Source of the DNA: Balanoglossus misakiensis
Taxonomy: Eukaryota > Animalia > Hemichordata
Direction of reading: 5' to 3'
Assembly (NCBI GenBank): GCA_040954595.2
Contig: CM082595.2
Location: forward strand, 8,910,317-8,974,316
DNA length: 64,000 nucleotides
The translations under genes and the position numbers were made by a program. The notes under the pieces are model-generated. The model saw nothing but the letters and a program-made list of their open reading frames with translations, was not told where the DNA came from and did not search any database. Positions 13,101 to 43,749 of the stretch are shown here, piece by piece (position 1 is the first letter of the stretch; the number at the start of each line of letters is the position of its first letter).

Positions 13101-16100
13101 ATGGCCAAAAGCAATTTTATTTGACATTGCTAATTGAACGATGACATTGAATCCGATTCTTTGCATCAGGGTAAATGGCGATGCAAGCTTGATGATGCAT
13201 CACGGTAGGTAGTGATGCAAACACTTTACTTTGACATGAGTATTAAATGCAAATGGGGATTTCAAGTTGATTACAAATCCCTGGGTTAATACGCGTCCAA
13301 AAGCACTGTAATTTGACATTGCTAATGCGATGTTGACATTGAATGTAATTCTCCGCATTAGGGCAAATGGCAAAGCAAGCTTAATGATACAATGGAGTAG
13401 ACGGTGATGCAAGCTATGCATTTTGACATAGGTATTTAATGCATGTGCATGGGTATTTAATGTTGAATGTAAATTCTCAGGTTAATACATCTCCAAAAGC
13501 ACTGTAATTTAAAATTGCTAATGTAAGGGTGACATTGAATCTGATTCTTTGCATTAGGGGAAATGGCGTAGCAAGCCTAATGATCCATCTGAGTAGATGG
13601 TGATGCAAGCTAAGCATTTTGACACAGGTACTAAATGTATATACATGGGTATTTAAAGTTGTCTGTAAATCCCCAGGTTAATACATGGCCATAAGCACTA
13701 TAATTTGACATTGCTAATGAAATGGTGACACTGAATCTGATTCTTTGCATCAGGGCATTTTGTGAAGCATGCTTGATGATGTATTAGGGTCAATAGTGAT
13801 GGAAACACTGCACTATGACATGGGTATTTAATGCATACGCATTGATATTTACAGTTGACTCTAAATCCCGAGGTTAATACATGGCTAAAAGCGCTGTAAT
13901 TTAAAATTACTAATGCAAAGGTTACATTGAATATGGGTAAATGGTGAAGCAAGCTTGAAGATGCATCAGGGTAGCTGGTGTTTCAAGCCCTTCACATTGA
14001 CATTGGAATATAATGCATATGGGGATTTAAAATTGATTGTAAATCCCTAGGTTAATACATGGCCAAAAGCACTGTAATTTAAAATTGCTAATGCAATAGT
14101 GACATTGAATGTGATTCTTTGCATCAGGGCATATTGTGAAGCATGCTTGATGATGCATTAGGGTCAATAGTGATGGAAACACTGCACTATGACATGGGTA
14201 TTTAATGCATACGCATTGATATTTACAGTTGACTCTTAATCCCGAGGTTAATACATGGCTAAAAGCACTGTAATTTAAAATTACTAATGCAAAGGTTACA
14301 TTGAATATGGGTAAATGGTGAAGCAAGCTTGAAGATGCATCAGGGTAGATGGTGTTTCAAGCCCTTCACATTGACATTGGAATATAATGCATATGGGGAT
14401 TTAAAATTGATTGTAAATCCCTAGGTTAATACGTGGCCAAAAGCAATTTTATTTGACATTGCTAATGCAACGATGACATTGAATCCGATTCTTTGTATCA
14501 GGGTAAATGGCGATGCAAGCTTGATGATGCATCACGGTAGATAGTGATGCAAACACTTCACTTTGACATGGGCATTAAATGCATATGGGGATTTCAAGTT
14601 GATTACTAATCCCTGGGTTAATACGCGTCCAAAAGCACTATAATTTGACATTGCTAATGCGATGTTGACATTGAATGTAATTCTCCGCATTAGGGCAAAT
14701 GGCAAAGCAAGCTTAATGATGCAATGGAGTAGACGGTCATGCAAGCTATGCATTTTGACATAGGTATTTAATGCATGTGCATGGGTATTTAATGTTGAAT
14801 GTAAATTCTCAGGTTAATACATCTCCAAAAGCACTGTAATTTAAAATTGCTAATGTAAGGGTGACATTGAATCTGATTCTTTGCATTAGGGGAAATGGCG
14901 TAGCAAGCCTAATGATCCATCTGAGTAGATGGTGATGCAAGCTAAGCATTTTGACACAGGTACTAAATGTATATACATGGGTATTTAAAGTTGTCTGTAA
15001 ATCCCCAGGTTAATACATGGCCATAAGCACTATAATTTGACATTGCTAATGAAATGGTGACACTGAATCTGATTCTTTGCATCAGGGCATATTGTGAAGC
15101 ATGCTTGATGATGTATTAGGGTCAATAGTGATGGAAACACTGCACTATAACATGGGTATTTAATGCATACGCATTGATATTTACAGTTGACTCTAAATCC
15201 CAAGGTTAATACACGGCTAAAAGCGCTGTAATTTAAAATTACTAATGCAAAGGTTATATTGAATATGGGTAAATGGTGAAGCAAGCTTGAAGATGCATCA
15301 GGGTAGCTGGTGTTTCAAGCCCTTCACATTGACATTGGAATATAATGCATATGGGGATTTAAAATTGATTGTAAATCCCTAGGTTAATACATGGCCAAAA
15401 GCACTGTAATTTAAAATTGCTAATGCAATGGTGACATTGAATGTGATTCTTTGCATCAGGGCATATTGTGAAGCATGCTTGATGATGCATTAGGGTCAAT
15501 AGTGATGGAAACACTGCACTATGACATGGGTATTTAATGCATACGCATTGATATTTACAGTTGACTCTTAATCCCGAGGTTAATACATGGCTAAAAGCAC
15601 TGTAATTTAAAATTACTAATGCAAAGGTTACATTGAATATGGGTAAATGGTGAAGCAAGCTTGAAGATGCATCAGGGTAGATGGTGTTTCAAGCCCTTCA
15701 CATTGACATTGGAATATAATGCATATGGGGATTTAAAATTGATTGTAAATCCCTAGGTTAATACGTGGCCAAAAGCAATTTTATTTGACATTGATAATGC
15801 AACGATGACATTGAATCCGATTCTTTGTATCAGGGTAAATGACGATGCAAGCTTGATGATGCATCACGGTAGATAGTGATGCAAACACTTCACTTTGACA
15901 TGGGCATTAAATGCATATGGGGATTTCAAGTTGATTACAAATCCCTAGGTTAATACGCGTCCAAAAGCACTATAATTTGACATTTCTAATGCGATGTTGA
16001 CATTGAATGTAATTCTCCACATTAGGGCAAATGGCAAAGCAAGCTTAATGATGCAATGGAGTAGACGGTGATGCAAGCTATGCATTTTGACATAGGTATT

Positions 16101-19100
16101 TAATGCATGTGCATGGGTATTTAATGTTGAATGTAAATTCCCAGGTTAATACATCACCAAAAGCACTGTAATTTAAAATTGCTAATGTAAGGGTGACATT
16201 AAATCTGATTCTTTGCATTATGGGAAATGGCGTAGCAAGCCTAATGATCCATCTGAGTAGATGGTGATGCAAGCTAAGCATTTTGATATAGGTACTAAAT
16301 GTATATACATGGGTATTTAAAGTTGTCTGTAAATCCCCAGGTTAATACTTGGCAAAAAGCAATTTTATTTGACATTGCTAATGAAATGGTGACACTGAAT
16401 CTGATTCTTTGCATCAGGGTAAATGGCGATGCAAGCTTGATGATGCATCCCGGTAGATAGTGATGTAAACACTTCACTGTGACATGGGTATTAAATGCAT
16501 ATGGGGATTAAAAGTTAACTGAAAATCCCTGGATTAATACAGGTCCAAAAGCACTGAAATTTGACATAGCTAATACAATGGTGACATTGAATGTGATTCT
16601 TTGCATCAGGGCAAATTGCGAAGCAAGCTTAATGATGCATCAGAGTATATGGTGATGCAAGCTATGCACTTTGACATAAGTATTTAATGCATATGCATGG
16701 GTATTTAATGTTGACTGTAAATCCCCAGGTTAATACGTGGCCAAAAGCACTGTAATTTGACATTGCTAATGCTACCGTGACACTAAATCTGATTCTTTGC
16801 ATTAGGGTAAATTGTGAAGCAAGCTTGATGATGCATCAGGATAGATGGTGTTTTAAGCCCCTCACATTGACATTGGAATATAACGCATATGGGGATTTAA
16901 AGTTAATTGTAAATACCCAGGTTAATACATTGCCAAAAGCACTGTAATTTAAAATTGCTAATGCAATGGTGACATTGAATGTGATTATTTGCATTAGGGG
17001 AACTGGCGTAGCAATCCTAATAGTGCATCAGAGTAGATGGTGATGCAAGCTCTGCACTTTGACATAGGTATTTAATGCATATGCATGTGTATTTAATGTT
17101 GACTATAAATCCTCAGGTGAATACATGGCCATAAACACTATAATTTGACATTGCTAATGAAATGGTGACACTGAATCTGATTCTTTGCATCAGGGCATAT
17201 TGTGAAGCATGCTTGATGATGCATTAGGGTCAATAGTGATGGAAACACTGCACTATGACATGGGTATTTAATGCATACGCATTGATATTTACAGTTGACT
17301 CTAAATCCCGAGGTTTATACATGGCTAAAAGCGCTGTAATTTAAAATTACTAATGCAAAGGTTACATTGAATATGGGTAAATGGTGAAGCAAGATTGAAG
17401 ATGCATCAGGGTAGCTGGTGTTTCAAGCCCTTCACATTGACATTGGAATATAATGCATATGGGGATTTAAAATTGATTGTAAATCCCTAGGTTAATACAT
17501 GGCCAAAAGCACTGTAATTTAAAATTTCTAATGCAATGGTGACATTGAATGTGATTCTTTGCATCAGGGCATATTGTGAAACATGCTTGATGATGCATTA
17601 GGGTCAATAGTGATGGAAACACTGCACTATGACATGGGTATTTAATGCATACGCATTGATATTTACAGTTGACTCTTAATCCCGAGGTTAATACATGGCT
17701 AAAAGCACTGTAATTTAAAATTACTAATGCAAAGGTTACATTGAATATGGGTAAATGGTGAAGCAAGCTTGAAGATGCATCAGGGTAGATGGTGTTTCAA
17801 GCCCTTCACATTGACATTGGAATATAATGCATATGGGGATTTAAAATTGATTGTAAATCCCTAGGTTAATACGTGGCCAAAAGCAATTTTATTTGACATT
17901 GCTAATGCAACGATGACATTGAATCCGATTCTTTGTATCAGGGTAAATGGCGATGCAAGCTTGATGATGCATCACGGTAGATGGTGATGCAAACACTTCA
18001 CTTTGACATGGGCATTAAATGCATATGGGGATTTCAAGTTGATTACAAATCCCTGGGTTAATACGCGTCCAAAAGCACTGTAATTTGACATTGCTAATGC
18101 GATGTTAACATTGAATGTAATTCTCCGCATTAGGGCAAATGGCAAAGCAAGCTTAATGATGCAATGGAGTAGACGGTGATGCAAGCTATGCATTTTGACA
18201 TAGGTATTTAATGCATGTGCATGGGTATTTAATGTTGAATGTAAATTCCCAGGTTAATACATCTCCAAAAGCACTGTAATTTAAAATTGCTAATGTAAGG
18301 GTGACATTGAATCTGATTCTTTGCATTATGGGAAATGGCCTAGCAAGCCTAATGATCCATCTGAGTAGATGGTGATGCAAGCTAAGCATTTTGACATAGG
18401 TACTAAATGTATATACATGGGTATTTAAAGTTGTCTGTAAATCCCCAGGTTAATACATGGCCATAAGCTCTATAATTTGACATTGCTAATGAAATGGTGA
18501 CACTGAATCTGATTCTTTGCATCAGGGCATATTGTGAAGCATGCTTGATGATGTATTAGGGTCAACAGTGATGGAAACACTGCACTATGACATGGGTATT
18601 TAATGCATACGCATTGATATTTACAGTTGACTCTAAATCCCGAGGTTAATACATGGCTAAAAGCGCTGTAATTTAAAATTACTAATGCAAAGGTTACATT
18701 GAATATGGGTAAATGGTGAAGCAAGCTTGAAGATGCATCAGCGTAGATGGTTTTTCAAGCCCTTCACATTGACTTGGAATATAATGCATATGGGGATTTA
18801 AAATTGATTGTAAATCCCTAGGTTAATACGTGGCCAAAAGCAATTTTATTTGACATTGCTAATGCAACGATGACATTGAATCCGATTCTTTGCATCAGGG
18901 TAAATGGCGATGCAAGCTTGATGATGCATCATGGTAGATAGTGATGCAAACACTTCACTTTGACATGGGCATTAAATGCATATGGGGATTTCAAGTTGAT
19001 TACAAATCCCTGGATTAATACGCGTCCAAAAGCACTGTAATTTGACATTGCTAATGCGATGTTGACATTGAATGTAATTCTCCGCATTAGGGCAAATGGC

Positions 19101-19995
19101 AAAGCAAGCTTAATGATGCAATGGAGTAGACGGTGATGCAAGCTATGCATTTTGACATAGGTATTTAATGCATGTGCTTGGGTATTTAATGTTGAATGTA
19201 AATTCCCAGGTTAATACATCTCCAAAAGCACTGTAGTTTAAAATTGCTAATGTAAGGGTGACATTGAATCTGATTCTTTGCATTATGGGAAATGGCGTAG
19301 CAAGCCTAATGATCCATCTGAGTAGATGGTGATGCAAGCTAAGCATTTTGATATAGGTACTAAATGTATATACATGGGTATTTAAAGTTGTCTGTAAATC
19401 CCCAGGTTAATACTTGGCAAAAAGCAATTTTATTTTACATTGCTAATGAAATGGTGACACTGAATCTGATTCTTTGCATCAGGGTAAATGGCGATGCAAG
19501 CTTGATGATGCATCCCGGTAGATAGTGATGCAAACACTTCACTTTGACATGGGTATTAAATGCATATGGGGATTAAAAGTTGACTGAAAATCCCTGGGTT
19601 AATACAAGTCCAAAAGCACTGAAATTTGACATAGCTAATACAATGGTGACATTGAATGTGATTCTTTGCATTAGGGGAAATGGCGTAGCAAGCCTAATGA
19701 TGCATCAGTGTAGATGGTGATCCAAGCTCTGCGCTTTGGCATACATATTTAATGCATGTGCATGGGTATTTAATGTTGAATGTAAATTCCCAGGTTAATA
19801 TATGCATGAGTATTTAATGTTGACTGTAAATCCCTAGGTTAATACATGGCCATAAGTACTGTAAGGGGTAGATGGTGATGCAAGCTCTGCACTTTGACAT
19901 GGGGATTAAATGCCTGCTGAGGGGGATTTTAAGTTGTCTGTAAATCCCCAGGTTGATATGTGGCCAAAAGCACTGTAATTTGACATTGCTAATGA
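10150..19995. repeat. Satellite array 2, ~192/196-bp monomers (plus a ~178-bp variant) with 388-, 958- and 1332-bp higher-order repeats
   Basis: GGTTAAT motif at 10211, 10407, 10599, 10795 (spacings 196, 192, 196). Matching ORFs recur at offsets 958 (12740/13698), 957 (17972/18929) and 1332 (13200/14532, 13698/15030, 14027/15359). Confidence 0.97.
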
Positions 19996-23677: not shown

Positions 23678-24020
23678 AGGGGCAAAGTCTCTCATCGCTG
23701 CCTTTTTTCAATTAATTATGTATGATACAAGACGCCATTGATGTTATTCTACATGTGGATATATGGTGAATCAACATTCGACCACACACAACTTCCGTCT
23801 CGTTTGTACGATATGAGAGTAAAAACTCGCCCAAAATGAATAAATGGTAAAGAACGATTATTCATTTTGGCGAGTTTTTCACTCTCCTGTCTATAAGAGG
23901 GATGGAAGTTGTGTGTGGTTGAACGTTCATTCGCTATATATCCACATGTAGAATAACAAACGGTGTCTCTTATCAAATATAATATGGGAAAAAGGGCAGC
24001 GAGAGAGAGACTTTGTCCCT
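23678..24020. mobile_element. Fold-back MITE, Kolobok-like (AGG...CCT termini, TTAA on the left)
   Basis: TIRs AGGGGCAAAGTCTCTC / AGGGACAAAGTCTCTC. Internal arms are also inverted (TCTACATGTGGATATA...TATATCCACATGTAGA). TTAA at 23674-23677; right-hand TTAA is absent. Confidence 0.8.
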
Positions 24021-24551
24021 CACATGGGGATTAAATGCATATGCGTGTGTATTTAAAGTTAACTGTAAATCCCCAGGTTAATACGTGGCCAAAAGCACTG
24101 TAATTTGGCATTTCTAATGATGGTGAGATGTTGTTTGCTCCCCAGGGAGTTGAATGGAATATTTAGGTCCAACATCCTAGCTCAAATGACCATGGGACAA
24201 CTTAAAGCACGTTGATATTTAATGTTCTACATAAGTTATAAATATTATAAAAATATTATTACATAAACAACACTCTTCCTTAGCAAAGGAAGTGGTCAGG
24301 TGAAATATATTCGCAGAGCTGACCAATTCTTTAAGGAAAATTAAAGTTGGGTAATTTGGATGTATTCATACGAGTGTTGGTCAATGATAGGAAAGTCCTT
24401 TGTTCATTTTCAAAATGAAAACCAAAAATGCGAACAAAACACACTGAATTACGTATGGGATATTGATGTTGCCTAATTTGCGTGACTCTACATTTACTTA
24501 AACTCTCACAGGGAGACAAATGTCACAGCAAACGGAAAAATGATTATGCTA
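24021..24551. repeat. Duplicate of 19897-20418 (terminal satellite-2 monomer, SINE 3' half and flank)
   Basis: Colinear from ACATGGGGATTAAATGC to GGAAAAATGA(C/T)TATGCTA. Confidence 0.9.
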
Positions 24552-24553
24552 AG

Positions 24554-26460
24554 CAATACGCCAACCTTTAAAATATTACTTTAGAAAGTTTGTATTCATA
24601 CTTTCTTCAAGTTGTCATAACGCTACCCCGAAATGTGTTTAAGTATTGCCTTTGTATTAATGGGCTAGATTCATGGCGTTATATGTCATAAATTAAAAAG
24701 CCAACCCTTATTGATTTTGATAATATTTATGTCGGAGAATCCACAATGAAAAATATGTATTTCAATTTCATAACTCAAAATGATTTTCAAATCCATGACC
24801 TTATTTTCAACTCCAGTGATCGTACATCCTGAACCTTGTGCCAGTAAATGATTGGCCATTACAGGGTTAATGGGCACTCTCCCGTTCTCTTCCTCCGCAG
24901 TTTCATTCATGTTCTTGTTTGACGGAAATGGGTGTGACCAGACGCTTGAATGTTTTCATGTGGGTGTCGTTGTTCATCGGGATCGGTCTCCTGGTGTGTC
25001 TGTACAGGTACGCAAGGAGAAACTGCCCACAAGAAGCTGCGAGTGAAACTATTTAAGGTAGTATGTGCCTCGCGGTCCGAGATTCAGACAAATGATAGTC
25101 CTCAAAACTTTTTCAAGTCTTTGATTTACTAAAGTGTATGGTGAGTCTCTTTGAAAACAACAAAAACATTACTCACCATATTGTTATTTTTTTGAAAGTT
25201 TAAAATGAAGTTGACAATGTACCAAACAGATTCTATTTATTTCTTCATGACCATGTTCACCCCAAGGTCATATGGACCTGCAAGTATATGCCAGAGCCAG
25301 AGTCGACATTACCGAAGCCAGAGTTCAAAGCTTGCAGGTCACCCCTTGCCAGCTCATGTCTAGCTAAACTGCCATGGATGCCAAGAGATATAGGACTACA
25401 GTAACCTGTAGATGGTTTCAGTATGTTTGAAGAAAGTGGTGGCGCACTTTTGGCTACATTTGAAATGGCTATGGTACCAGTGGTTGAATTTGCAAAGGTG
25501 ACCTTTGACCTGGCATCATTAAAGATATTAAAGAACGATTGAACATTCCTTGTTGTCGTAAAATGACATCTGTAATAACTTATATTTTATCTGTTCATCT
25601 TGAAGTACTATATATTTAAACGCCAATTTTCCATTGCCAATCAATTTTTACAAATAAATTGTAATATGCATGTTGATTTTACAAAAACTCCTTACTTCAA
25701 AGTGAATTCTGTTACACATCACGTAAATATTTTCCCCACGAATTCTTCAGTTGCTGACTCGGAAATTTCATATATTGGGCAGAAATTGGATACATTACCG
25801 AGCCATTAAAATTACAGTTTTCTATTTTAATTGATCTTCCATAACTTCAAGTACTTTGATTTGACATAAATTAAAAACATCATGGTGAATAAATAAAAAA
25901 TCTTTGATTATCTAATTGTGCATGTTTACATGGTTTTATTTTAGTATGCTGGGTACTTAATGTCTAATTGCTCGCTGATTTTATACTGTTCAAGATGACA
26001 ATCTAATTTTAGTTTTCAGCTGATAATGGAAATCACTGATTAAAAAAATTGAATTTTGTCATGAATAAACTTGTTGTTCAAGGCAGTTGCTGTATTTTGT
26101 TTCATGTGTATTCAATTTTTGCAAGAATACCATTGAGCACAGTTTGATTTGATTAAACACGTTTATCGGAAAATTTTGTCATTTGAAATATCTGTTTTTG
26201 CGCCCTCTACCATTTGACCAAATGATTCTCTTATTTTGGTGGCCTTTGTCCGTGTATATGAGAATACTATAGTACTCTCGCATCGATGATAGTAGAAGTT
26301 GAAAACGTCTCTTGCCACGTGGCCTAGAAGAAAGGTGATCTTTAGAGTAAAATAAAACAAACTATCCAGATAGGAAGCTAGAAAAGAAATTGAATCGTTG
26401 AAATTTTATTTATTTTTATATTGTTAATATCGTTGGTGATGTTGACTGGCCGACAATCTT
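24554..26460. repeat. ~1.9-kb repeat of unknown class, copy 1 (uninterrupted; provides the empty site for the 36898-42268 transposon)
   Basis: Colinear with 35874-36897 plus 42272-43155 with scattered substitutions. Empty site TGTAATAACTTATA at 25571-25584. Confidence 0.93.
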
Positions 26461-28032
26461 TGTCACACCAGTATTTGCAGGTAGATTAAAACATTGCCTA
26501 TTCCAGCAATAATCACAACAGTCTTACTTTTTCTATCTTTGTAAGCGTTAATCTTTATTGACCTCGCTTGTTGTTTTGTGTTTTTGTGTTGTTTTTGTTT
26601 TTGTTTTGTTTTTTTAGTAGTTTCATAATTTTATTTGTATTTTTAAAATGTTTTCCTGTTTTTTGTTTACTTTTTTATTTTGTTTACTATTTGTTGATTG
26701 TAATGCTGTATGGGTCTCGACTGTCGGTCCCAACTTGTCATATAATTAGGTAGTACTGGAGTCAGTGGAAACCCAGGTGCCCGCATAATTTCAGGTGTAG
26801 TGACACCGTGTATTGTCATGTTAATGAATAGGGCTTCGTTAGCTAAGTTTCGTGTAGTAAGAGAGCACACTTCAATTTAGGTCTTGAAGGGAGCAACAAG
26901 TCGGGTCTCCCTGCTCAGTGAGTAGAAATACTAGGGGAAATATTGCACCATACCTTGCTGTGTCCATGTAATGCTGTAGCGCGCATTAGTGCTCTCAGGA
27001 CCACTGTTTCTGCAATTCGAGTGGAAGTAAATTCAGTACTTCTAGAAAGCAGAATTGTGCTTATTCAGTGCAAACCGGTGTGGTCGGGCGATTGGCGTGG
27101 CTGGCATGGTCGTATGTGGTGTGGCTGGAAATTGCTCCAAGCAGAGTTCTGTGGAACCATCCTATAGACCCGGTATTGCTGAGTATGAAGTGTGGTGAAG
27201 AATTCTCGTGTAAGTAATGTATTTGTTTATTTATTTACTATAACTTAAATTTATTTTTTATGGATATTTATGTCAAATTCGACAATTTGTAAGTAATAGG
27301 ACGGTCATAGTTAAAGCATAATTTTCCATGATATCACATGTAATCATGACGCTTTAACTAGTCCAAATTTCTGATAATTATTATTGAGAAACGTCAGTAT
27401 TCATTTGTGAACAGTTGCTAAGGTGGACATTTCAGTCAATGTTTGTTGATTTTTCATTCAGCCATTTAACCCAAGACTTGCATCTAACAAGTCAGTCTTC
27501 AGTGTGTTTACTTGACTACTGGAGGACTACAAGTGGTAGAAAACATGGTGTATCACAGATTGTATGTGTAATGTGGATCGTCGCTACATCGTTCATCTAT
27601 ACAGGACTCCATCCCATATTGTGGTTGAATCATGATTGTTTACTATGAATGTTATATACAGCTAAGTGACACTTACCATTGTTTAGACAATATGCAATAG
27701 ACAATAAACTATAGTGATATTGTGAATATATTCATTTATGTAATATATTAAGTAACCCATTGTATTGTATGACCAATTGTATCAGCATACCTGTACCTGC
27801 TAAATTGGTTAGGACAGAGACATTTGATATTGTGCATATTGTGCACAAAAATTATATTCCTAGTATTATCTTTATATTATTTAATTGATTTAAATTAAAT
27901 CAACTGTATTATTGTATCCGCACTGGTTTGTGTAGTTTCTCCCCATACCTTATCCACGGATGTTTACTCCTTGGCACTGAGAGCAGCTCAATATTTATCC
28001 TGGAATCAGAGGGGTGCCCTCCACCTCTGACA
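26461..28032 (+). mobile_element. 5' LTR (1572 bp) of a Gypsy retrotransposon
   Basis: Begins TGTCA essentially where similarity to copy 2 of the 1.9-kb repeat ends. Ends TGACA immediately before a PBS. Confidence 0.85.
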
Positions 28033-28371: not shown

Positions 28372-31237
28372 TTGGAAGGGACTGCTTTAAAAGATTATGT
28401 TAGAGAGGAACAAATTAGACAGAGGGATCTTAGGGCTACTGAGAGAGAGGAGCAGAGAGAAGATAATAGGCGGCGCGAGGAACATGAGAGAGAGATACTG
28501 AAAATGCAACTTCACTTACAAGAATTAAAATTGAAAGGGGAAAATACAGAACAGCAGGTTACTGAAAATAATTTGGCCAAAGCGCGTGCTCCGAGACTAC
28601 AGGGTTTTCGTGAGGATGTTGATGATATGGATGCGTACCTTCAACGTTTTCAGCGCTACGCCACTGCTCAGAAGTGGGAAAAAGATGACTGGGGGTGAAT
28701 CTCAGTGCATATTGTTACAAGGTAAGGATGTATCCACATACAACCAAATGCCTGCAGCGTCTGCAAATAATTATGATGAATTGAAACCAGAGTTATTGAG
28801 GGCTTACCAGTTAAGTGAGGAGAGTTTTCATGACAAGTTCCGTTCGTGTATGCCACATTATGATGAAAGTGCTCAAAAGTTTATGGACCGTATTGGTGAC
28901 TATTTGGGCAGATGGGTAGAACTGGCTGGTACTCCAAAGACGTACAATGGGCTTACAGATCTGTTACTTCGAGAGCAGTTTATTGGAGTATGTTCCAGAG
29001 ACATGGCAATGTTCATTAGAGAGCGACGGCCAGAGAATGTCCAAGAGATGGTATCTACTGCCTCAAAATACTTAGATGCCCGAGGGTGGTGGAAACTGCC
29101 AAGTAATGCCAAGAATAATCCAAGGAGCCAGCCGACAGCAAATACCAGGCCTGCTGTATATCCAAATCAAGTAAAGAAGTTTAATAACAAAACCAATGGT
29201 TCCCATGTTTTTAAAGGTACGTGCTTCGTATGTGGTAAAGGTGGTCATATGGCCAAAGATTGTAGAAGTAAGCCAAAGATGCATAACACGGCGGTATTGT
29301 TAACTGAAGAAGATAGAAACTATCCACCTAAACAAGAATGTACACATTGGGGCAACCGTCAACAGCCCAGGGGACTAGACACTGGTTATGCATGTATGGT
29401 GGTAGCAATGGAAATAGATAAAACAGATGCAACACTGAATAAGGAGTTCGTGTTACCATGTGGTCATAAGCTCCCAGTGATGAGTGCTGCTTGTAGTGCC
29501 CATGGAGTGAAGAAGATGCCGGTAATGAAGGGATTGGTCGATGGTAAGCTGGTTAGCGTTTTGCGTGATAGTGGGTGTAGTAGCGTGGTAGTTCGAAGAA
29601 GTCTGGTGTCAAGTAGTCAGCTGACTGGTAAGTACAGGACGTGTGTTCTGATAGATCGGACTATTAGAAGAGTACCTGCAGCCTCAATAAAAGTTGATAC
29701 CCCTTACTTTGTTGGTGATGTTACTGCACTGTGCATGATGAACCCTGTGTATGATTTAATACTGGGCAACATTGATGGTGTATCTGACCCTTCGAATCCT
29801 GATACTACATGGCAGGAACCATTGCCGACATGTAGACTGTGTACAACTGTTGGACAGGTACCAGGTTTAGCATATGCTGTGGAGACCAGAGCCCAGAAGA
29901 TAGCCAACCAAAAACCAATCAGAGAGCTTAAAGTACCTAAAGCTGTTGGTGAAGTGGTGATGCCAGGGAAGCTTCAACAAGCTCAAGAAGAATACTCCAC
30001 TCTTGACAAACTACGTGAGAAGGCAATTTTGGGTGACCAGAAAGTGACTAGGAATGGAGGTAGGTTGAAGTTCATCATGAAAGATGGGATCCTGTACAGA
30101 GAGTTCAATTCGCCAATGGTCCAATTTGGTGAAAAGCTGTTACAGGTGGTGGTTCCCAGAGTGTATCGTAACCAGGTGATGAGACTAGCCCATGAATCAG
30201 TGCTGCGTGGTCACCACGGAACTCACAAGACCACAGACAAGATCCTCAGCAACTTCGTTTGGCCTGGGCTAACATCAGATGTTTCCCGTTACTGTCAGTC
30301 CTGTGATTCATGTCAACGGACACAACAAAAGGGACGGGTGACCAAGGTACCACTTGGAAGTATGCCACTAATAGATATCCCTTTCCTACGTATTGCAGTA
30401 GACCTGGTTGGCCCTATTCATCCATGCACTGAACGCAAGAATAGGTACATACTTACTGTTGTTGATTATGCAACACGCTATCCGGAGGCTGTTGCATTGA
30501 CTAACATTGATACCAAGACTGTTGCAGAGGCGCTCCTGGACATCTACTCAAGAGTGGGGTGTCCACGTGAAATTCTGACAGATCAAGGAACTCAATTTAC
30601 ATCAGATGTGATGCGTGAGGTCAGCCGGCTTTTGTCTATAAAGCAGATGACTACCACCCCATACCACCCAGCATTCAATGGTCTAGTGGAACGGTTCAAT
30701 GGTACATTGAAACTCATGCTCAGGAAGATGTGTGAGGAACGTCCAACATATTGGGATCGTTATCTGAATGCTTTACTATTTGCCTACAGAGAAACGCCTC
30801 AATCGAGCACAGGATTCTCTCCGTTTGAGTTACTTTATGGGAGGAGTGTGCGTGGTCCAATGGCTATCTTGAAAGAACTATGGACTGGAGAGATCAGTGA
30901 ACCAGAAACCAAAACGACTTATCAATACATCCTTGATCTTCAAAAGAAATTAAAGAAGGCATGCGATTTAGCAAGACAAGAACTGAAGATATCACAAGGC
31001 AAATACAAGTCCTACTACAATAGAAAGGCCAAATGGAGGAAGTTCAACAAAGGTGACGAGGTGTTATTGCTACTACCTACTGACCATAATAAACTACTTA
31101 TGCACTGGAAGGGTCCTTTTCCAGTGGTGGAGAAAGCGAGCAATATGGATTACAAGATTGACTTTGGTCATAGGGTGAAAACATTCCATGCCAACCTGTT
31201 GAAGAGGTACTATCGAAGAACTGATCAGCTAGAATAA
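28372..31237 (+). pseudogene. Gypsy (Gmr1-like) gag-protease-integrase, frameshifted near 28695
   Basis: Coiled-coil N-terminus, capsid/SCAN-like LLREQF, CCHC knuckle CFVCGKGGHMAKDC, aspartic protease LRDSGCS, integrase HHCC (AHES...GHHG...CDSC), core DLVGP/TDQG/VERFN and GPF motif. Confidence 0.93.
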
Positions 31238-32155
31238 GTATCAGCTGGACTTCTTGAGATTGTGTGTGTATCTGTGATAGATGAGCAGAGTTATGAATCT
31301 TCAGAAGTACAAGAGAACACAGGGGTTAAAGTAAACGATGACTTACTGCGGGTTCCTGCATTCAAGCAGAAAGAATTTGCTGCAGATGTGAATGTATGTG
31401 ACAACTTGTCAGACATACAGAAGCAAGTGGTGAGGAGGTTGCTGATCAATTACAAAGATATGTTAACTGATATTCGTGGTAACACCAACCTGGGTTTCCA
31501 TGACATCAAGTTGATGGATCCAACACCAGTATGCAGTAGGCCATACCCCATCCCTCATGCACTCCGTGAAGCAGTGAAAGATGAAGTCAAAATGATGATT
31601 AAGATGGGAGTAGCTGAACCTTCAGAGAGTCCATATGCTGTTCCACTGGTAATGGTGAAGAAATCTGATGGGTCCAATCATTGTTGTGTTGACATGAGAA
31701 AGCTCAATCGCATAACAGTGTTTGATGCAGAGCCTACACCAGACCTGAGTGAGCTTTTTGCTTTTTGCTAAGTTATCCAAGGATCACTATTTCACTAAAG
31801 TAGATCTCAGCAAAGAATATTGGCAAGTCCCGTTGACTGATAATTCTAAACAATTGACGGCATTTATCACGCATGATGGGCTATACCAATTTATCAAAAT
31901 GCATTTCGGACTTGTAAATAGTGCTGCGACTTTTAGCAGAATTATGAGAAGATTGTTAAGAGATATGAAGAACGTAGACAACTATATCGATCACATACTG
32001 ATCCACACTGCATCATGGGAAGAACATATCAAGACAATTACAGATTTGATGAGCAGACTACGAAAGGCAAAGTTAACAGCGAGACCAACTAAGTGTTATG
32101 TGGGTTATGAGCAGATCGATTTCCTGGGTCATGTGGTTGGTCATGGTGAACTAGT
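31238..32155 (+). pseudogene. Reverse transcriptase downstream of the integrase; disabled and 3'-truncated
   Basis: Motifs PYPIP, VDMRKLN, VDLSKEYWQVP, MHFGLVNSAATF and FLGHVVG. YIDD has become YIDH. Stop at 31235-31237 and frameshift near 31765. No RNase H or 3' LTR follows. Confidence 0.92.
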
Positions 32156-32254
32156 CCTGTTTCAAAATGACCTACATTACAGGTCCTATGCAAACGTATT
32201 ACATGTTCTGATTGGTTTATCCACTTCTCTAAGGTCCACTTGCGGCTCGCTGAT

Positions 32255-32510
32255 TGGAGGGACCTTATGTGTTAGGTCTTATTACTATGTATTATTCACC
32301 AGACCTTGTAGGTTAGGTCTTATTACAATGCATTATTCACTTTACAGCTCCCTGATTGGTTAATGTGTAGGTCTGGTCCTCCAGTGTTCACTGCCTCATT
32401 ATGCAGGACCTTGTAGGTTAGGTCTTATTAATATGTATTTATTCACCATACAGCTCCCTGATTGGTTAACGTGTCAGTCTGGTTCCCCCCAGTGTTCACT
32501 GCCTCATTGT
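32255..32510. repeat. Short imperfect tandem repeats (GACCTTGTAGGTTAGGTCTTATTA...)
   Basis: Copies at ~32261, ~32302 and ~32406. Confidence 0.7.
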
Positions 32511-35615: not shown

Positions 35616-35651
35616 TAGTTTATGTATGTAAAGTGTTCCTGATGTTAACAC

Positions 35652-35759
35652 AATCTGATTAAAATCAGATGTAGGCCTAGGGAATGGCGACGTAGTTTTT
35701 TGATGCTGCGACAGCATAAAAACACGTCGCCGTTCCCTACATCTGATTTTAATCAGATT
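35652..35759. mobile_element. ~108-bp near-perfect hairpin MITE
   Basis: AATCTGATTAAAATCAGATGTAGG...CCTACATCTGATTTTAATCAGATT with paired interior (GGCGACGT/ACGTCGCC, ATGCTG/CAGCAT). Confidence 0.75.
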
Positions 35760-37839
35760 AGCGTTAACATAACTTTGACAGAATAAGTTAACGCCATAAC
35801 TTTGACAGAATAAGAGTTGCCTCAAACGGCTCTAACCGAATTTCCATTAATAGCAGAACAAACAAGCTGTAATCAATACGCCAACCTTTAAAATATTACT
35901 TTAGAAAGTTTGTATTCATACTTTCTTCAAGTTGTCATAACGCTAACCCGAAATGTGTTTTAGTATTGCCTTTGTATTAATGGGCTAGATTCATGGCGTT
36001 ATATGTCATAAATTAAAAAGACAACCCTTATTGTTTTTGATAATATTTATGTCGGAGAATCCACAATGAAAAATATGTATTTCAATTTCATAACTCAAAA
36101 TGATTTTCAAATCCATGACCTTATTTTCAACTCCAGTGATCGTACATCCTGAACCTTGTTCCAGTAAATGATTGGTCATTACAGGGTTAATGGGCACTCT
36201 CCCGTTCTCTTCCTCCGCAGTTTCATTCATGTTCTTGTTTGACGGAAATGGGTGTGACCAGACGCTTGAATGTTTTCATGTGGGTTGAGTTGTTCATCGG
36301 GAACGGCCTCCTGGTGTGTCTGTACAGGTACGCAAGGAGAAACTGCCCACAAGAAGCTGCGAGTGAAACTATTTAAGGTAGTATGTGCCTCGCGGTCCGA
36401 GATTCAGACAAATGATAGTCCTCAAAACTTTTTCAAGTCATTGATTTACTAAAGTGTGTGGTGAGTCTCTTTGAAAACAACAACAATATTACTCATCATA
36501 TTGTATTTTTTTGAAACTATAAAATGAAGTTGACAATGCACCAAACAGATTCTATTTATTTCTTCATGACCATGTTCACCCCAAGGTCATAAGGACCTGC
36601 AAGTATATGCCAGAGCCAGAGTCGACATTACCGAAGCCAGAGTTTAAAGCTTACAGGTCACCCCTTGCCAGCTCATGACTAGCTAAACTGCCATGGATGC
36701 CAAGAGATATAGGACTACGGTAACCTGTAGATGGTTTCAGTATGTTTGAAGAAAGTGGTGGCGCACTTTTGGCTACATTTGAAATGGCTATGGTACCAGT
36801 GGTTGAATTTGCAAAGGTGACCTTTGACCTGGCATCTTTAAAGATATTAAAGAACGATTTACCATTCCTTGTTGTCGTAAAATGACATCTGTAATAACAC
36901 TGCGGCCCAAACGCCGCCCTCTCGGGGCAGTATTTCTGTGGCGCGTTTCAATAGCTCATGAATAATTAATTAGCGCGATCATGGCGGTCGCTCAGCGGAG
37001 CTGAAACCTGAATACAGTGAAATTCGGTAAGTGTTTCTTGTCATTTTTTACGATCTACTGCACCATACATAATAGTGTTCACAGTAAACGAAACAAAAAT
37101 ATTATTTCATCTGTACATTTCATATTGAATCACTGAAATAACTTTAAAAATAACTGATTTACCGCGCGGGTGTGCTGTTGCTAACGACAGCACTGCCCTC
37201 AGCAACCACTTACACAGGGTGGAAAATTCAACGATTTAGCCTTGCTAACCTGTTATCTGACATTTCAAAACCATACGAGTTTACCTAACTATGGTTATTT
37301 CACGGATGTTATATTTGAACAACTGCTACCACAGGTTTAACGAAATTACACCAAGCGATTCTCGATACCTCAGCATGTCGTACGCCTCCGGCTGTGTTTA
37401 CATGTACTGCAATGGCGACACGTCTCAGCTGTCACTGCGTGTGGTTTTGTTAGCAAAAGTCTGAGTTGGAATGGATTAAATTTTAAAATCGAGAACCAAT
37501 AGTTTTAGCTAAATTACGTACTTAATGCATTACACTATAAATGCAAAGTTAAAAATCAAAACAGAAAATTTTGAACCTGTGTCTGCGCAGTACAGTTATA
37601 TTCACTCCAATTCTCCCATTGAAATATGCCCATCTCTGCGTATACACGTTGGTATGTATGGAGAGCTGTGGTCGATATGCCTAGCTCAGAGCAGGTTTTA
37701 TCAAATGTCTTTCAGTGATTTTCTTTGCATTGCTGTTGGGTATCGGTTGAAAAATACTAAAGTCACTAATGTACTATAAATATACATGCATAATTATTAA
37801 TTATTATACATTCTTATTCATTGTAATTTTCCTCTTCAG

Positions 37840-38305
37840 ATCAGAAACAGCTCAGGTATGTGGTGGAGTAAACTGTTACTTAGATGTAGGGCACCCCTGC
37901 AAAGTTTATCCATCAACATGCCAAGTAGGAAAGAAAAAAACATACTTCAACATAGGTCAGTGGGCAAAGGAACAGAAGCTAGCCAGAGAAATTGCAAAGG
38001 AAAAGCATTCACAGGAGCTATTAAGAGAAAATTCAAAGACTAGGTCATTGCTAGAAAGAGTGCAGACTAATGCCTTGCTATAGAGGACAGAAGAATGCCA
38101 GCCAAAATATCGGTTTAACTTGGGGGAGTGGTCTAGACAGCGGAAGAGAAAGAGGGATCAGGAGAGTAGCATAATCGAGGATAACCTTAATAAGATCAGT
38201 GCTGCTAAAAGACTAGTAAAACGGGCTAAAACCCGTCTTGCTAGACTTGAGCAGAGGAATAATAATGTGAGACAGGAGTTAGGTGCTAGGACCTACAGTA
38301 TAAAG
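37840..38305 (+). pseudogene. Predicted upstream coding exon of the transposase, with an in-frame TAG at 38081-38083
   Basis: Acceptor TTTTCCTCTTCAG ends at 37839. ORFs 37769-38083 and 38120-38314 share a frame and are separated by a single stop. Donor AAG|GTACAG is phase 0, matching the acceptor ending at 38536. Confidence 0.6.
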
Positions 38306-38536
38306 GTACAGTGAGTTTAAACGATTGAATAAATTTAATTTGTCAGTTTTACTCAAATAGAATTCAATCATATGCACAGTTAGCTAATGTTAGGGGAACA
38401 TCGTCTGTTTTTATCATGCATATTTTGAAGTCCTTGGGATTACTAGCTTGCTCCTATAATCACAATGAAATGCTCAAAATTTAGGCTGATAAATCCACTA
38501 ACCTCTTCATGTACATTTTTTTGTGTAATCTTGCAG

Positions 38537-40768
38537 AGAAAACTAGATGCTTTGCAACCCAGGTGGATTCACAAGAACTCAGAAGTGTGTGAAGATAACA
38601 GTGAGGTTTTGACAATATCACGGCGTGAACAGTATGAACGTAGATGTAAAACCTTGTCAGCCGCCACATCTATTCATGTATCAACAACCGATACCAGTTT
38701 AGCCAATGGTGTAGGTAATTTTACCAGATTGAAACCTTCAAAAGCTGCACTTGATGGTTTGTGGTTTACCCTCATCAACTCTGCCAAACCTGAACAGATT
38801 GAAACCTATTTGAAAACATCACCTCAAATCAGAGAGAAATTAATGCCATCGATAGTAGACAAATCTATTGATCAATTTGAAAAAAGTGAAAGCAATTTAA
38901 TAAGGAGTGTCAGAGTTCTGTATGAGGGTGGAGTGCTATCAAAACGCAAATACACTTGTCTGAGGCTGAGTGAACTGCAAACATCATCTAAAATACAAAA
39001 TCCAAGTAGGGCAATGCAGTTTCACTTTGGCTGCAGAATACCAAGATTACTGACATACAACAAAGTTGTACGCTATGTTAGTAATCTTGATATTTGTACT
39101 CTTGAACCCATTCTGACAGCAGAAGGGAAACAGGTAGGTTTGAAACGTAACATTGAAGAGTTACTTGTTAAGATTGCCAATCTGTATTTACAAATGAAAT
39201 CAACCCAGCCAGACATTCTTAACTGGTTTGATAGACAAGAAGGTAACTTCCAGATTAGTATAGGTGCTGATGGTGCACCATTTGGAAAACATGGCCAAGC
39301 TACTGCCTGGTTGGTCAGTTGTTTGAATGTTGGACATCGTGTTGCAAGCCCAGATGATAATTTTCTACTGTTGGGGGCAAATCTCAAAGAAGATGATCCG
39401 ATTATGATTGACTATGCACATTCATTATCAAAAGAACTGAATTGTATCCAGAAACGTAAATACAATGTTGGCAATCTTTGTGTGACTTTCCAAGTTTCGC
39501 TCTTGCCTTTTGATCAGAAAGGTTTAGCTTCAATGCCTGGAGAGCTTTCCAATGCTGCACAGTACTTAAGCTCTTTTGCTAATGTTTCAAAGTCAGATAG
39601 AGATTGTATTGGAGCAGATATTGGTCCAGGTAAAAAATGGCAAGAATGGTCATATGACAAACGCATTAAAGATGTTGAAGCTGTGGAGAAATTCAAATCG
39701 CAACCAAAGAATAGAGATGGCAAGCCAAAAACTGTGCGGCCAAAAGTCACTAAATTTATAGCCAGTAGAAAATCCAGACAGGAATTTGTACCCCCTCTTG
39801 GTCGATTTATCGACTGTGCTAAAGTTGAACCATTGCACATGAAAAACAATGCATGGCAGTACTATTTCCAGATGCTGTTGATAGATGCAGTTGCTCACAC
39901 TTCACAAACAGATTTTGATAAGGGGGTTAAGATTGAAAATCTCCCAAAGGAGTCTTGTCTATACAAATTCCTGTCTGCATTAAAATACCAAGTGAGAGCT
40001 GGAAAACTGTACAACAAAATTTGAAAGTTCTTTAGTGAAAACAATGCAAAATCACTTTCTCAAATAAGTGCTGTTTATCGCTTTACTGGGGAAGAGTCCC
40101 GTAAACTAGCATGGAAATTCATGTCACTGATTAAGACACCCATGGGTGATAAAGATAGTGTAAAGCGGCGAGCTCGATTGGCTCTTTTCACATATCTTGG
40201 GTTGTTGCTGAGGGATATTACCTTGCTCTTTTCAAGGTTTAATCTGAGTGAAGGGGATTTACTTGTCCTGAAACAGAAATGTACATGGTACTTTAACCTC
40301 CATTCACTATTTTTTGATGTAAATAATACTGTTTGGCATATTGGATACGCAGTACCTAAACATGCAGCAAGTGTGTATCAGCAATTCAAACTTGGTTTGG
40401 GGTTGAATACTATGGAAGGTCGAGAAGCAAAACATCTTCGTCTTCTTGAATTGAGTAAGAATTCCACTCCTCAGAACAGGTGGACCCTCATATTCCGCCA
40501 TGAATACACAATGCTCTTTTGGCTAAGAGAAAGAAATCCAAAAGCAGACAAATATAGGCGGGCCAATCTAGTTCAGTATGAACTTAAAGAAAGAGAAAAA
40601 TATATACCCAGTCTGTACTATGACAGTGCAGGTTACTGTATGTGTGGTAACATGAAAGATGAAGCAGTGTCTACATGTAAAATTTGTAATGACCCAGTTA
40701 TTGCTGAAATAAAACAAGCAGCAGTGTCTGGCAAGCTGAGTAATAAACTGAAGAAAATTGTTCTGTGA
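38537..40768 (+). pseudogene. DDE transposase related to RAG1/Transib/Chapaev, with an in-frame TGA at 40022-40024
   Basis: The 519-aa and 215-aa ORFs share a frame and are bridged by KFFSEN...VYRFTGEESRKLAWKF. Motifs in order: IGADGAPFG (D, 39269), PFDQK (D, 39512), VEPLHMKNN, YRFTG, WHIGYAVPKH, GLGLNTMEGREAKH (E, 40424), then a C-terminal CxC...CxxC. Confidence 0.78.
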
Positions 40769-41378
40769 AGTGTATTTGCCCTTCTGTGCAAAATGTTTCC
40801 TGTTTCAGTGTTTTTAACTTACCGTGTTGAAATGTTGTGAATGTCAAATTGAAATGAATGATATTATTAACATGTATTAAACTGGAAATAAACTCTGCCA
40901 CACTTCTGTGTTCACAACTGTTACAACAGATGCATGTCAGGCCATTGTAACTAAACGGTATATATGCAACATCATGAACTTCAGTATTCTCACAGTGTAC
41001 ATAAACATGTCATGATTCTGATACAACTGCATGTTATCTGTACTAACACAAACCTTAAATGCAGGGTTAATGTGATATTCTATTACAGTCTAAATGAATA
41101 GATTTGAAACGTTTGTGTCTTAAGTCTATCATATTACAATAATATTGAATATAATTATAAGATTTCCTTGCTAAGTAATTAACGATAATCAGAATACATT
41201 AATTTAATGTAGTTAAAATCACAATAAGTTAACTTTCAAATCCCATGAATTGTATATATCAAATTGAATGATTTTATATTTATTGAATGCTAAGAAAGTT
41301 AAATGCAATTTATAATGAAATTCATGACAATTCCTTGTACTTCTGCTGTATTGCATGTAATGTTGATTGTTGGAATTG

Positions 41379-41421
41379 AATAAAGACAATACTACTTCAT
41401 TTTCAATCTACTGTTTTTATT
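41379..41421. terminator. Candidate opposing polyadenylation signals between the convergent genes
   Basis: AATAAA (+) at 41379-41384 and TTTATT (AATAAA on -) at 41416-41421. Another + AATAAA lies near 40887. The context is AT-rich, so chance occurrence is possible. Confidence 0.35.
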
Positions 41422-41530
41422 TCTTAATTAATGAGAACACAACACCGACAAACTGTATATATTGACTGAAGTGTCAAGAGTATTGGACAGAAGGCCAATT
41501 TTGCATTAGACTTGCAATGTTACTGATGTT

Positions 41531-42184
41531 CTAGTTCTCTGAGTGCATTGGAATGCTGTGTTTGTTCCAGGCTCCAAAGCAAAAGTTGACCACAACAGAT
41601 TCCCTGTTCATGTAGTATTTGACAATACACGGCTTTGTTTCTGTGCATATGACAGCCACTCGCTTTCCTTTGACCACTCTCGCCAGCACATTCTCCTTAT
41701 CTTCCGGTCCGAGATTTCTGTCATCACAGCAACCTCTCCGCAGGACGTAAGTCAGCTTCAATAGGTTGGTAAAGGTCAAGGTTACGATGGCCTTGGACGT
41801 CTTCTCATGGATCCCAAAACTATTCCGAGTGGCGTCATGATGAAATACAGCAAACACTTCCTTGGGCATTTGTCTAGAAAAGCCGCTTTTCCAAGGCGAT
41901 CTCAACGAAGGTGAGGCTGACAGGCGTGCGTGGAAACAACGCAGCCAGTGACCCATTTCACGTTGGAAAATAGGGAATACCGCAACATCTCGATAACGAA
42001 TTTTGTCTTTTGTAATCTTGTCGTTCCTCAGTAGAACCCTTTTGGCTGAATCGGACAATTCATCAAACAGGGAATGTACATGTATAACATCCAACATACA
42101 TTTTCGACGCAGAATTAATGACTTAGCAGCTCGTAATTTGCGCTGTATGATTTTCTCCGTATCAACCAACACGGCCGCCGCCAT
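41531..42184 (-). CDS. Intact 217-aa basic protein of unknown family; transposon-borne second gene
   Basis: Uninterrupted ATG-to-stop ORF starting 84 bp inside the right terminus in a CAAGATGGCGG context. Minus-strand AATAAA at 41416-41421. Confidence 0.7.
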   Translation of the reverse strand: MAAAVLVDTEKIIQRKLRAAKSLILRRKCMLDVIHVHSLFDELSDSAKRVLLRNDKITKDKIRYRDVAVFPIFQREMGHWLRCFHARLSASPSLRSPWKSGFSRQMPKEVFAVFHHDATRNSFGIHEKTSKAIVTLTFTNLLKLTYVLRRGCCDDRNLGPEDKENVLARVVKGKRVAVICTETKPCIVKYYMNRESVVVNFCFGAWNKHSIPMHSEN

Positions 42185-43749
42185 CTTGGAAAAAGCGTTG
42201 CTACGGTGATGGCGGCAATCGCGCTTCGCGGAATACTGCTCAAACTACAGTGGGTCTGGCCCGTAGTGTAACTTATACTTTATCTGTTCATCTTGAAGTA
42301 CTATATATTTAAACGCCAATTTTCCATTGCCAATCAAGTTTTTACAAATAAATTGTAATATGCATGTTGATTTTACAAAAACTCCTTACTTCCAAGTGAA
42401 TTCTGTTACACATCACGTAACTATTTTCCCCACGAATTCTTCAGTTGCTAACTCGGAAATTTCATATATTGGGCAGAAATTGGATACATTACCCAACCAT
42501 TAAAATTACAGTTTTCTATTTTAATTGATCGTCCATAACTTCAAGTACTTTGACTTGACATACATTAAAAACATCATGGTGAATAAATAAAAATTATTTG
42601 ATTATCTAATTGTGCATGTTTACATGGTTTTATTTTAGTATGCTGGGTACTTAATGTCTAATGGCTCGCTGATTTTATACTGTTCAAGATGACAATCTAA
42701 TTTTAGTTTTCAGCTAATAATTGAAATCAATGATTCAAAAAAATTGAATTTTGACATGAATAAACTTCTTGTTCATGGCAGTTGCTGTGTTTTGTTTCAT
42801 TTGTATTCAATTTTGCAAGCATACCATTGAGCACAGTTTGATTTGATTAAACACGTTTATCGGAAAATTTTGTCATTTGAAATATCTGTTTTTGCGCCCT
42901 CTACCATTTGACCAAATGATTCTCTTATTTTGGTGGCCTTTGTCTGTGTATATGAGAATACTATAGTACTCTCGCATCGATCATAGTAGAAGTTGAAAAC
43001 GTCTCTTGCCACGTGGCCTGGAAGAAAGGCGATCTTTAGAGTAAAATAAAACAAACTATCCAGATAGGAAGCTAGAAAAGAAGTTGAATCGTTGAAATTT
43101 TATTTATTTTATATTGTTAATATCGTTGGTGATGTTGACTGGCCGACAATCTTTGCATACAGCAATATCTTTCAAGATAAATAATTTATGTCCTAAAGGT
43201 ATTACTTTTAGTGGTCTGACGGAGATTTTTTCTGCTGTAACATGCAAAACCTGCGGCGGACCTGAGGTCATGTTGCGAACACTGTAGTTTTGTTACGCCC
43301 GCCATCCTTCGGACGTTTACCTCATCGGGGCTTCTTTGGGGAATCAGCCACGTCCGAAGGGTGAGAGTGTAAATTCTCTCCCTCTCCTTCTCCACCCAAC
43401 ATATTCATAGAGTCAGAGAGAGGTACCCGGCATATCGTAAACTTAACGAGAGGCATAACGAGACTTTCAACAAGTTTTCCGAGTAACACAAATAGTTCTG
43501 GTTTATTACTGGTCACACGTAAGAATTACACGACTCTATCCATGCTCGTTGACTCCCGTCACGGATCTCCGGTGATAATAATGTGATATCAAATTTCACC
43601 ACCTCTTATTAATACGTTAGTCAAGTATTATGTCATAAAAAGAACACGTCATCTTAATATTTCTTAAACATGAACTTAGCGCGTGATATCTCTATCTCGT
43701 TCTGACATGTATCAATTACACAATCTTGTTTACTCTGAGTCAAGTACCT

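Follow-up and report, generated by a model that had tools for sequence, protein, structure and literature searches.

RAG is thought to have originated when a Transib-type transposon gained the RAG2-like gene RAG2L. Transib and the RAG-like (RAGL) elements duplicate 5 bp of target DNA (PMC10629977, PMC4411706), and the RAGL transposases carry a C-terminal motif CX2CX3GHX4C (PMC10629977). Chapaev3 elements duplicate TWA between A and T (PMC4079192), Chapaev and Chapaev3 transposases have an N-terminal Chapa zinc finger (PMC4411706), and DUF1280 corresponds to Chapaev (PMC3985635). EnSpm/CACTA elements are characterized by two open reading frames (ORFs), ends that read CACTA and a target duplication of 3 bp (PMC4158355). 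The CMCT clade as a whole has CA..TG termini and duplications of 2-5 bp, and all CMCT lineages as well as RAG1 share the motifs C(2)C and H(3-4)H (Kojima 2025, PMC12730594). The element described here occupies positions 36898-42268 of a 64,000-nt stretch of the Balanoglossus misakiensis genome (contig CM082595.2; hereafter the window). Its two convergent genes encode a transposase of predicted RAG1 fold and a second protein. The element likely represents a CMCT/RAG1-clade lineage that has not been described before and that carries a partner gene of its own.

The insertion measures 5,371 bp and reads CAC...GTG between two copies of TAA. Its flanks, joined with one TAA, are 97% identical over 597 nt to an empty paralog at 25279-25874, and because this empty copy carries a single TAA the boundaries and the 3-bp duplication are exact. 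The left end reads CACTG... and the right end ...TAGTG (CACTA... when read from the end). The terminal inverted repeats are imperfect, 13 of the 17 outermost nucleotides agreeing, and GCAGTATT stands at positions 30-37 of both ends. A preliminary description of this DNA had proposed exact boundaries from an empty site within the window, a TAA duplication, CAC/GTG termini and a long gene on the + strand with a tail-to-tail gene on the - strand. All of these were recovered, the genes as two + strand exons (37840-38305 and 38537-40768) and an intact - strand ORF of 217 amino acids (aa). The features of the locus are:

36895..36897, no strand: left target-site duplication TAA, matching the single TAA at 25576-25578 in the empty paralog
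36898..36937, + strand: left imperfect terminal inverted repeat, CACTG..., with the inner GCAGTATT at 30-37
37027..37839, + strand: putative intron in the 5' untranslated region of the transposase gene, proposed from its GTAAGT donor and TTCAG acceptor
37918..38305, + strand: transposase coding exon A from ATG 37918, with a basic, coiled-coil-like N-terminus, an extra A in the run 37934-37940 and TAG at 38081
38306..38536, + strand: predicted phase-0 GT-AG intron, from splice signals and frame
38537..40768, + strand: transposase exon B, 743 codons, predicted RAG1-fold core with D245 (39269), D326 (39512), H434 (39836), E630 (40424) and a C-terminal CxCG-CxxC; premature TGA at 40022
40887..40892, + strand: candidate polyadenylation signal of the transposase gene
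41531..42184, - strand: convergent partner gene, 217 aa, intact, basic (isoelectric point (pI) 9.9), its ATG 84 nt from the right end
42229..42268, - strand: right imperfect terminal inverted repeat, CACTA... from the end
42269..42271, no strand: right target-site duplication TAA, from the empty-site comparison
24550..26462, + strand: empty paralog of a host repeat of about 1.9 kb, 97% identical to 35870-36897 plus 42269-43155

The + strand gene encodes a DDE transposase with a predicted RAG1 fold. Its AlphaFold2 (AF2) model, with a predicted local distance difference test (pLDDT) score of 87.8, matched RAG1 (E 8e-12), HzTransib (1e-6) and the P element (0.02) in Foldseek. In VIA, residues 115-672 were placed on residues 461-1005 of mouse RAG1 with Z 22.7 and a root-mean-square deviation of 3.9 A over 467 residues, followed by BbRAG1L (Z 20.1), HzTransib (19.7), the P element (12.6) and Hermes (6.2). 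The identity to RAG-type proteins in these structural alignments was 10-13%. Together with the conserved D-D-E residues, these matches support the preliminary description as to a DDE transposase of RAG1 type; the motifs that it listed are all present. In the ESM Atlas, the nearest neighbours of a Nematostella member of the family are cnidarian clusters without a family name (0.97), further neighbours being a cluster with 16% DUF1280 members (0.96) and RAG1 families (0.92-0.94).

A search with the 743-codon exon yielded 99 relatives among 7,993 candidates and a search with the transposase profile 365 matches at E<=1 among 7,996. Identity to the window transposase is 80% in Ptychodera flava, 30-41% in corals and 29-41% over Nematostella, Porites and many environmental proteins. 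The named members of the transposase clusters are anthozoans and a hemichordate, relatives that by themselves point to an acorn worm or a related animal as the probable host. The family is multi-copy in Nematostella. No meaningful Pfam match was obtained for the window ORFs, and Transposase_21, DUF1258, DUF1280 and the RAG1 families were absent from the matches listed for 48 + 41 transposases. PHROGs gave no match for 10 proteins, and a PDB search by sequence gave nothing significant for the single transposase or its profile. In one gene model of Dendronephthya gigantea (P0449, 1124 aa) a family transposase is combined with weak matches to CUE and HECT, which may reflect either a fusion or an error of annotation.

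The D-D-E residues are conserved. D245 and D326 were found in 81/81 aligned sequences, H434 in 80/80 and E630 in 74/75, with a spacing of 304 aa from the second Asp to the Glu. The cysteines of the presumed zinc site are missing. The CxxC that follows the second Asp occurs in none of the 189 proteins in which this segment could be located (out of 194), where the segment reads YFSxF. Of the two histidines, the second (609) is kept in 76/81 aligned sequences and the first (604) in 84/194, being Tyr in the window copy. The preliminary description had placed a motif WH...KH opposite HK..AH of RAG1. This was out of register: position 601 is T in 59/81 sequences, the variable His is at 604, and H601 was rejected as a zinc ligand. 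The proposed one-to-one mapping of motifs onto RAG1 is not supported at the zinc site, where CxxC is absent. Positions were matched to the RAG1 zinc ligands by motif order and residue numbering. Seven of the 15 residues invariant in the family cluster in the segment after the missing CxxC, residues 350-420 of the transposase (P0001): W368, K387, R401, R414, E416 and P419, plus F347 immediately before the segment. This segment may replace the zinc site structurally. At the C-terminus a CxCG-CxxC finger is present in 162/194 family proteins, the CCGHC motif of RAG1L (CX2CX3GHX4C) in 0/194 and a GRPR/K motif in just 1/194. The N-termini of 11 long homologues and of window exon A were basic and helical on inspection, with no Cys-rich finger.

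The partner gene accompanies the transposase well beyond the window. A transposase relative is encoded by 195 metagenome stretches, and the best 80 were taken for locus analysis. A convergent partner homologue (18-31% identity to the 217-aa ORF) lies downstream in 30/80 loci, which span 16 of 45 nucleotide families. Among loci with at least 1450 nt downstream it is present in 29/35, and in 11/12 with at least 3000 nt. The convergent ORF, whose conservation the preliminary description had set as a check, is kept at most loci with enough flank. The partner profile recovered 740 representatives at E<=1e-3, and a profile built without the window protein found the window partner at E 1.4e-36. The longest of the 150 homologues listed is 296 aa, and no transposase-partner fusion was seen among the family proteins examined. 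A borderline convergent partner-like match (L071:4102-4329, E 0.056) lies beside one of the most diverged transposases, and the pairing may extend beyond the loci counted.

The partner is under purifying selection and co-inherited with the transposase. Identities of the two proteins correlate over 18 families, each represented by one member and including the window and a locus from a prokaryote assembly (L081, see below) (Mantel rho 0.61, p=1e-4). The two trees share most clades, with the window's own branch placed differently. Median identity is 0.21 for the partner and 0.39 for the transposase, corresponding to roughly twofold faster evolution of the partner. Of 12 pairs, which are non-independent, 6 were saturated, and the other 6 gave dN/dS values of 0.19-0.46 for the partner. 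Homologues have a median pI of 9.3 (n=78) and conserved R86, R87, R95, R104 and K184. No residue is invariant, and a C-terminal YGxWNxxGxPxH motif is conserved. In the model (pLDDT 93.5), long helices make up the N-terminal part and an alpha/beta domain the C-terminal part, without a propeller. Foldseek gave no match at E<=1e-3 in PDB or BFVD, and VIA returned generic helical hairpins only (Z<=7.9; C-terminal domain Z<=4.9). As modelled, the partner has no recognised fold and is not kelch-like. Homology to RAG2 was considered and rejected, the 217-aa protein being predicted to form helices plus one alpha/beta domain and not a six-bladed kelch structure. A single-sequence search and an Atlas look-up gave no match, nor did Pfam give a meaningful one for 24 partner proteins; the partner profile found nothing significant in PDB by sequence.

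Both ends could be assigned in 15 elements of 4.2-8.5 kb, picked by inverted-repeat score and inspection. Their termini are CAC...GTG, mostly CACGC, with one left end TAC; among the relatives CACG is found at the left end in 12/14 and at the right end in 14/14. Arrays of subterminal repeats are a hallmark of CACTA elements. In the window element and in 9/10 relatives, no 9-mer reaches three occurrences within the outermost 300 nt. A 3-bp duplication flanks 6/15 complete elements (shuffle mean 1.0, p=1.3e-4) and a 4-6-bp duplication none of the 15. The element has moved with a 3-bp duplication, as the preliminary description held. The TWA-type target preference suggested there was not retained: the duplications are TAA, ATT, AGC, AAT, TAG and ATA, only one of the six fits TWA, and C follows the right TAA in the window. 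None of three candidate short non-autonomous copies in the loci was flanked by duplications.

Viral contigs contained no relatives among 42 pattern matches. In prokaryote genomes, searched with one pattern, one locus of 20 pattern matches was a relative (L081:4178-12719). It is a complete family member of 8.5 kb with an ATA duplication and intact genes, in which long internal inverted repeats place a copy of a partner-gene segment at the left end. The contig is labelled as an Anaerolineae metagenome-assembled genome. Since its outer flanks lack any ORF of 100 aa, it is probably mis-binned animal DNA and not a bacterial copy.

The window copy itself is dead, with one frameshift (the extra A) and two stops, at 38081 (TAG) and 40022 (TGA). 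It was compared with contigs from two public DNA runs of one sample, which align over the element with about 99.5% identity. Both runs have one A fewer at 37934 and a different letter at stop 40022; stop 38081 has a different letter in one run, the site being uncovered in the other. Both also cross the right end into a flank unlike that of the window, beginning AAA, and in one contig AA precedes the left CAC. Because the public contigs differ at the lesions and carry another right flank, a copy without the three lesions appears to sit at another site. They also bear on the start of translation, which is likely ATG 37918, since one A fewer at 37934 puts this ATG in frame. Long homologues share similar basic N-termini. 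The start at 37840 given in the preliminary description was rejected and replaced on these grounds. The full transposase would comprise about 870 aa (129 + 743 codons). One public run (X1) also contains, over 41533-42243, a related deletion derivative at high depth in which 41580 is joined to 42130 and pieces of the partner gene are retained. At its loose end stands what reads as a right terminus of related type, with GCAGTG as its last letters and TGT after them. The derivative is likely a non-autonomous relative.

The surroundings of the element are repetitive. Contig depth in the public runs is high for the 1.9-kb host repeat (24550-26462; 35870-43155), and inverted-repeat patches lie at 23678-24020 and 35642-35770. 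The remnant of a Gypsy-type long terminal repeat retroelement, broken by stops, extends over 28535-32363, with a zinc knuckle, protease, integrase and reverse-transcriptase-like stretches identified by eye. Three satellite arrays (1-5466, 10188-19800 and 43753-64000) are built of units of 116 bp, about 196 bp and, in the third, AT-rich units of 27/79/106 bp; the third array flips orientation near 58.8 kb.

The best explanation is probably that of a CAC...GTG insertion with a RAG1-fold DDE protein and a facing 217-aa gene that likely supplies a helper subunit for cut-and-paste transposition. The element would work like a CMCT/RAG-type cut-and-paste element with a ProtoRAG layout. The transposase of about 870 aa would bind the bipartite ends of about 35-40 bp via its N-terminal helices and its C-terminal CxCG-CxxC finger. 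By analogy, the ends may be cut by the nick-hairpin route of RAG and Transib (PMC10629977); their joining to target DNA would be staggered by 3 nt and largely indifferent to target sequence. The partner, small and basic, would enter the transposase-end complex as a non-catalytic cofactor, in a role like that of RAG2 played by an unrelated, separately recruited protein. There is a somewhat better than even chance that the partner is such a non-catalytic subunit of the transposition complex, on account of the congruent trees, the conserved terminal motif, a catalytic region longer than in RAG1 and the lack of subterminal arrays. The YGxWNxxGxPxH motif suggests a docking surface.

Several observations weigh against this explanation. 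The role of the partner is inferred from comparisons of sequences and models, and any gene inside an element is expected to be co-inherited with it. Six of the 35 long-flank loci are without a partner, although none of these six has a recognisable end pair. The loss of the CxxC could mean that the chemistry is unlike that of RAG. No Chapaev or EnSpm structure is among the PDB matches, and therefore the match to RAG1 shows the clade and not the branch. Furthermore, 9/15 complete elements lack a matching 3-bp duplication. At least three contig pairs (L005/L009, L038/L039 and L014/L015) have one flank in common but not the second, as would result from chimeric assembly of short reads through repeats, an explanation that may not hold for all nine.

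For the partner, a role as DNA-binding regulator or anti-silencing factor has also been considered. It would resemble TnpA and act outside the cutting complex, on the element's ends or promoter, for expression or accessibility. Its basic character with five conserved Arg and Lys residues, its fast evolution relative to the transposase and the contribution of CACTA ORF2 to excision and transposition (PMC4158355) all agree with such a role, which is nevertheless the less likely one. The model matched no known DNA-binding fold in Foldseek or VIA, although such a fold may have escaped these comparisons, and the terminal 300 nt, poor in repeated 9-mers, contain no CACTA-type site array. The blank single-sequence search and the low identity between homologues (18-31%) could be taken to mean that the second ORF contributes nothing to the life cycle of the element and is carried passively or has arisen by chance. 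This is highly improbable and largely refuted by the constant position and orientation of the ORF in 16 families, in the prokaryote-labelled locus and in the window, the congruent trees, purifying selection, the confidently modelled fold and the recovery of the window partner by a profile built without it.

The other question is whether the family is new. It might belong to EnSpm/CACTA (or Chapaev) as a divergent subgroup of animals already present in Repbase, which is considered possible but doubtful. Repeats of the Nematostella genome, in which the family is multi-copy, have been curated by Repbase, and the nearest named Atlas family is DUF1280 (Chapaev). The CACTG/CACTA ends in the window, the variable 3-bp duplication and the two ORFs are as in CACTA elements (PMC4158355), and elements with CAC..GTG ends and a 3-bp duplication are classed as EnSpm by Kojima 2025 (PMC12730594). 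On the other hand, no transposase Pfam family was among the matches listed for the members searched, coral members end in CACGC, and the CxxC common to all CMCT lineages (PMC12730594) was found in none of the 189 family proteins with a located segment. Tao et al. 2022 (PMC9435367, main text) describe no such partner, and neither does the excerpted text of bioRxiv 2021.09.26.461848. A description of the two-gene family was not found in the literature searched, with Repbase Reports, Repbase and Dfam outside the search, which agrees with the statement of the preliminary description that the combination was not recognised as a described family.

Tentatively, and with less confidence than the subunit role of the partner, the family may be a superfamily-level branch without a name, beside Transib/RAG and Chapaev, with a zinc-free RAG1-fold transposase that needs a second subunit of new fold. 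If so, this branch is abundant in corals and was recently mobile in an acorn-worm-like animal, and the combination of RAG1 with a partner has originated independently a second time, which offers a natural test of the reason for which RAG1 took on RAG2. The same fold and tail-to-tail layout with an unrelated partner in at least 18 diverged families would mean that recruitment took place more than once. The family would allow experiments on what a partner subunit contributes, and it supplies intact candidates for transposition assays. The missing zinc cysteines challenge a motif held to be universal in the CMCT clade. In addition, the family accounts for coral and hemichordate proteins that are annotated as 'uncharacterized' and number in the hundreds, with 365 clusters for the transposase (E<=1) and 740 representatives for the partner.

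Compared with known systems, the window family resembles ProtoRAG/RAGL (BbeRAGL, PflRAGL-A, TransibSU) and RAG1-RAG2 in transposase fold (Z 20-23), CAC ends, bipartite ends, two convergent genes and occurrence in hemichordates and corals (PMC10629977, PMC9435367). It differs in its 3-bp duplication, against 5 bp in RAGL, in the lack of a CxxC after the second Asp and in having CxCG-CxxC instead of CCGHC; RAG2L is a six-bladed kelch protein, whereas the partner is an alpha/beta protein of 217 aa. Of the earlier label 'ProtoRAG-like' the gene layout stands, while the 5-bp duplication, RAG2L and the CCGHC motif are missing. Transib (HzTransib) shares the fold (Z 19.7) and CAC ends, but has a single gene, duplicates 5 bp and contains an SxxCxxC motif, and its spacing from the second Asp to the Glu is 206-214 aa, compared with 253 in RAG1 and 304 in the window family (PMC1131882). 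Chapaev/Chapaev3 elements have CAC...GTG ends, a 3-bp duplication and the LH motif in common with the family and are the nearest named family by language-model features. The window family, unlike these, follows no TWA rule, lacks C(2)C, has H(4)H in just 84/194 proteins, has N-termini in which inspection revealed no Cys-rich finger of the Chapa type, shows no DUF1280 among the Pfam matches listed, and carries a second gene. Likewise the CA..TG termini, a duplication within 2-5 bp and the RAG1-type DDE core are those of the CMCT clade, but C(2)C is missing and H(3-4)H appears degenerate, and therefore the family fits no listed CMCT lineage as defined. With EnSpm/CACTA the window copy shares CACTG/CACTA ends, a variable 3-bp duplication and a transposase plus second ORF; the differences are the absence of Transposase_21 from the Pfam matches listed, of C(2)C and of subterminal repeat arrays, CACGC ends in most relatives, and a second ORF that is short, single-exon and convergent. 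By the features tested, the window element is not a RAGL, Transib or Chapaev3 element, and its fit to EnSpm/CACTA, the main rival filing, is partial.

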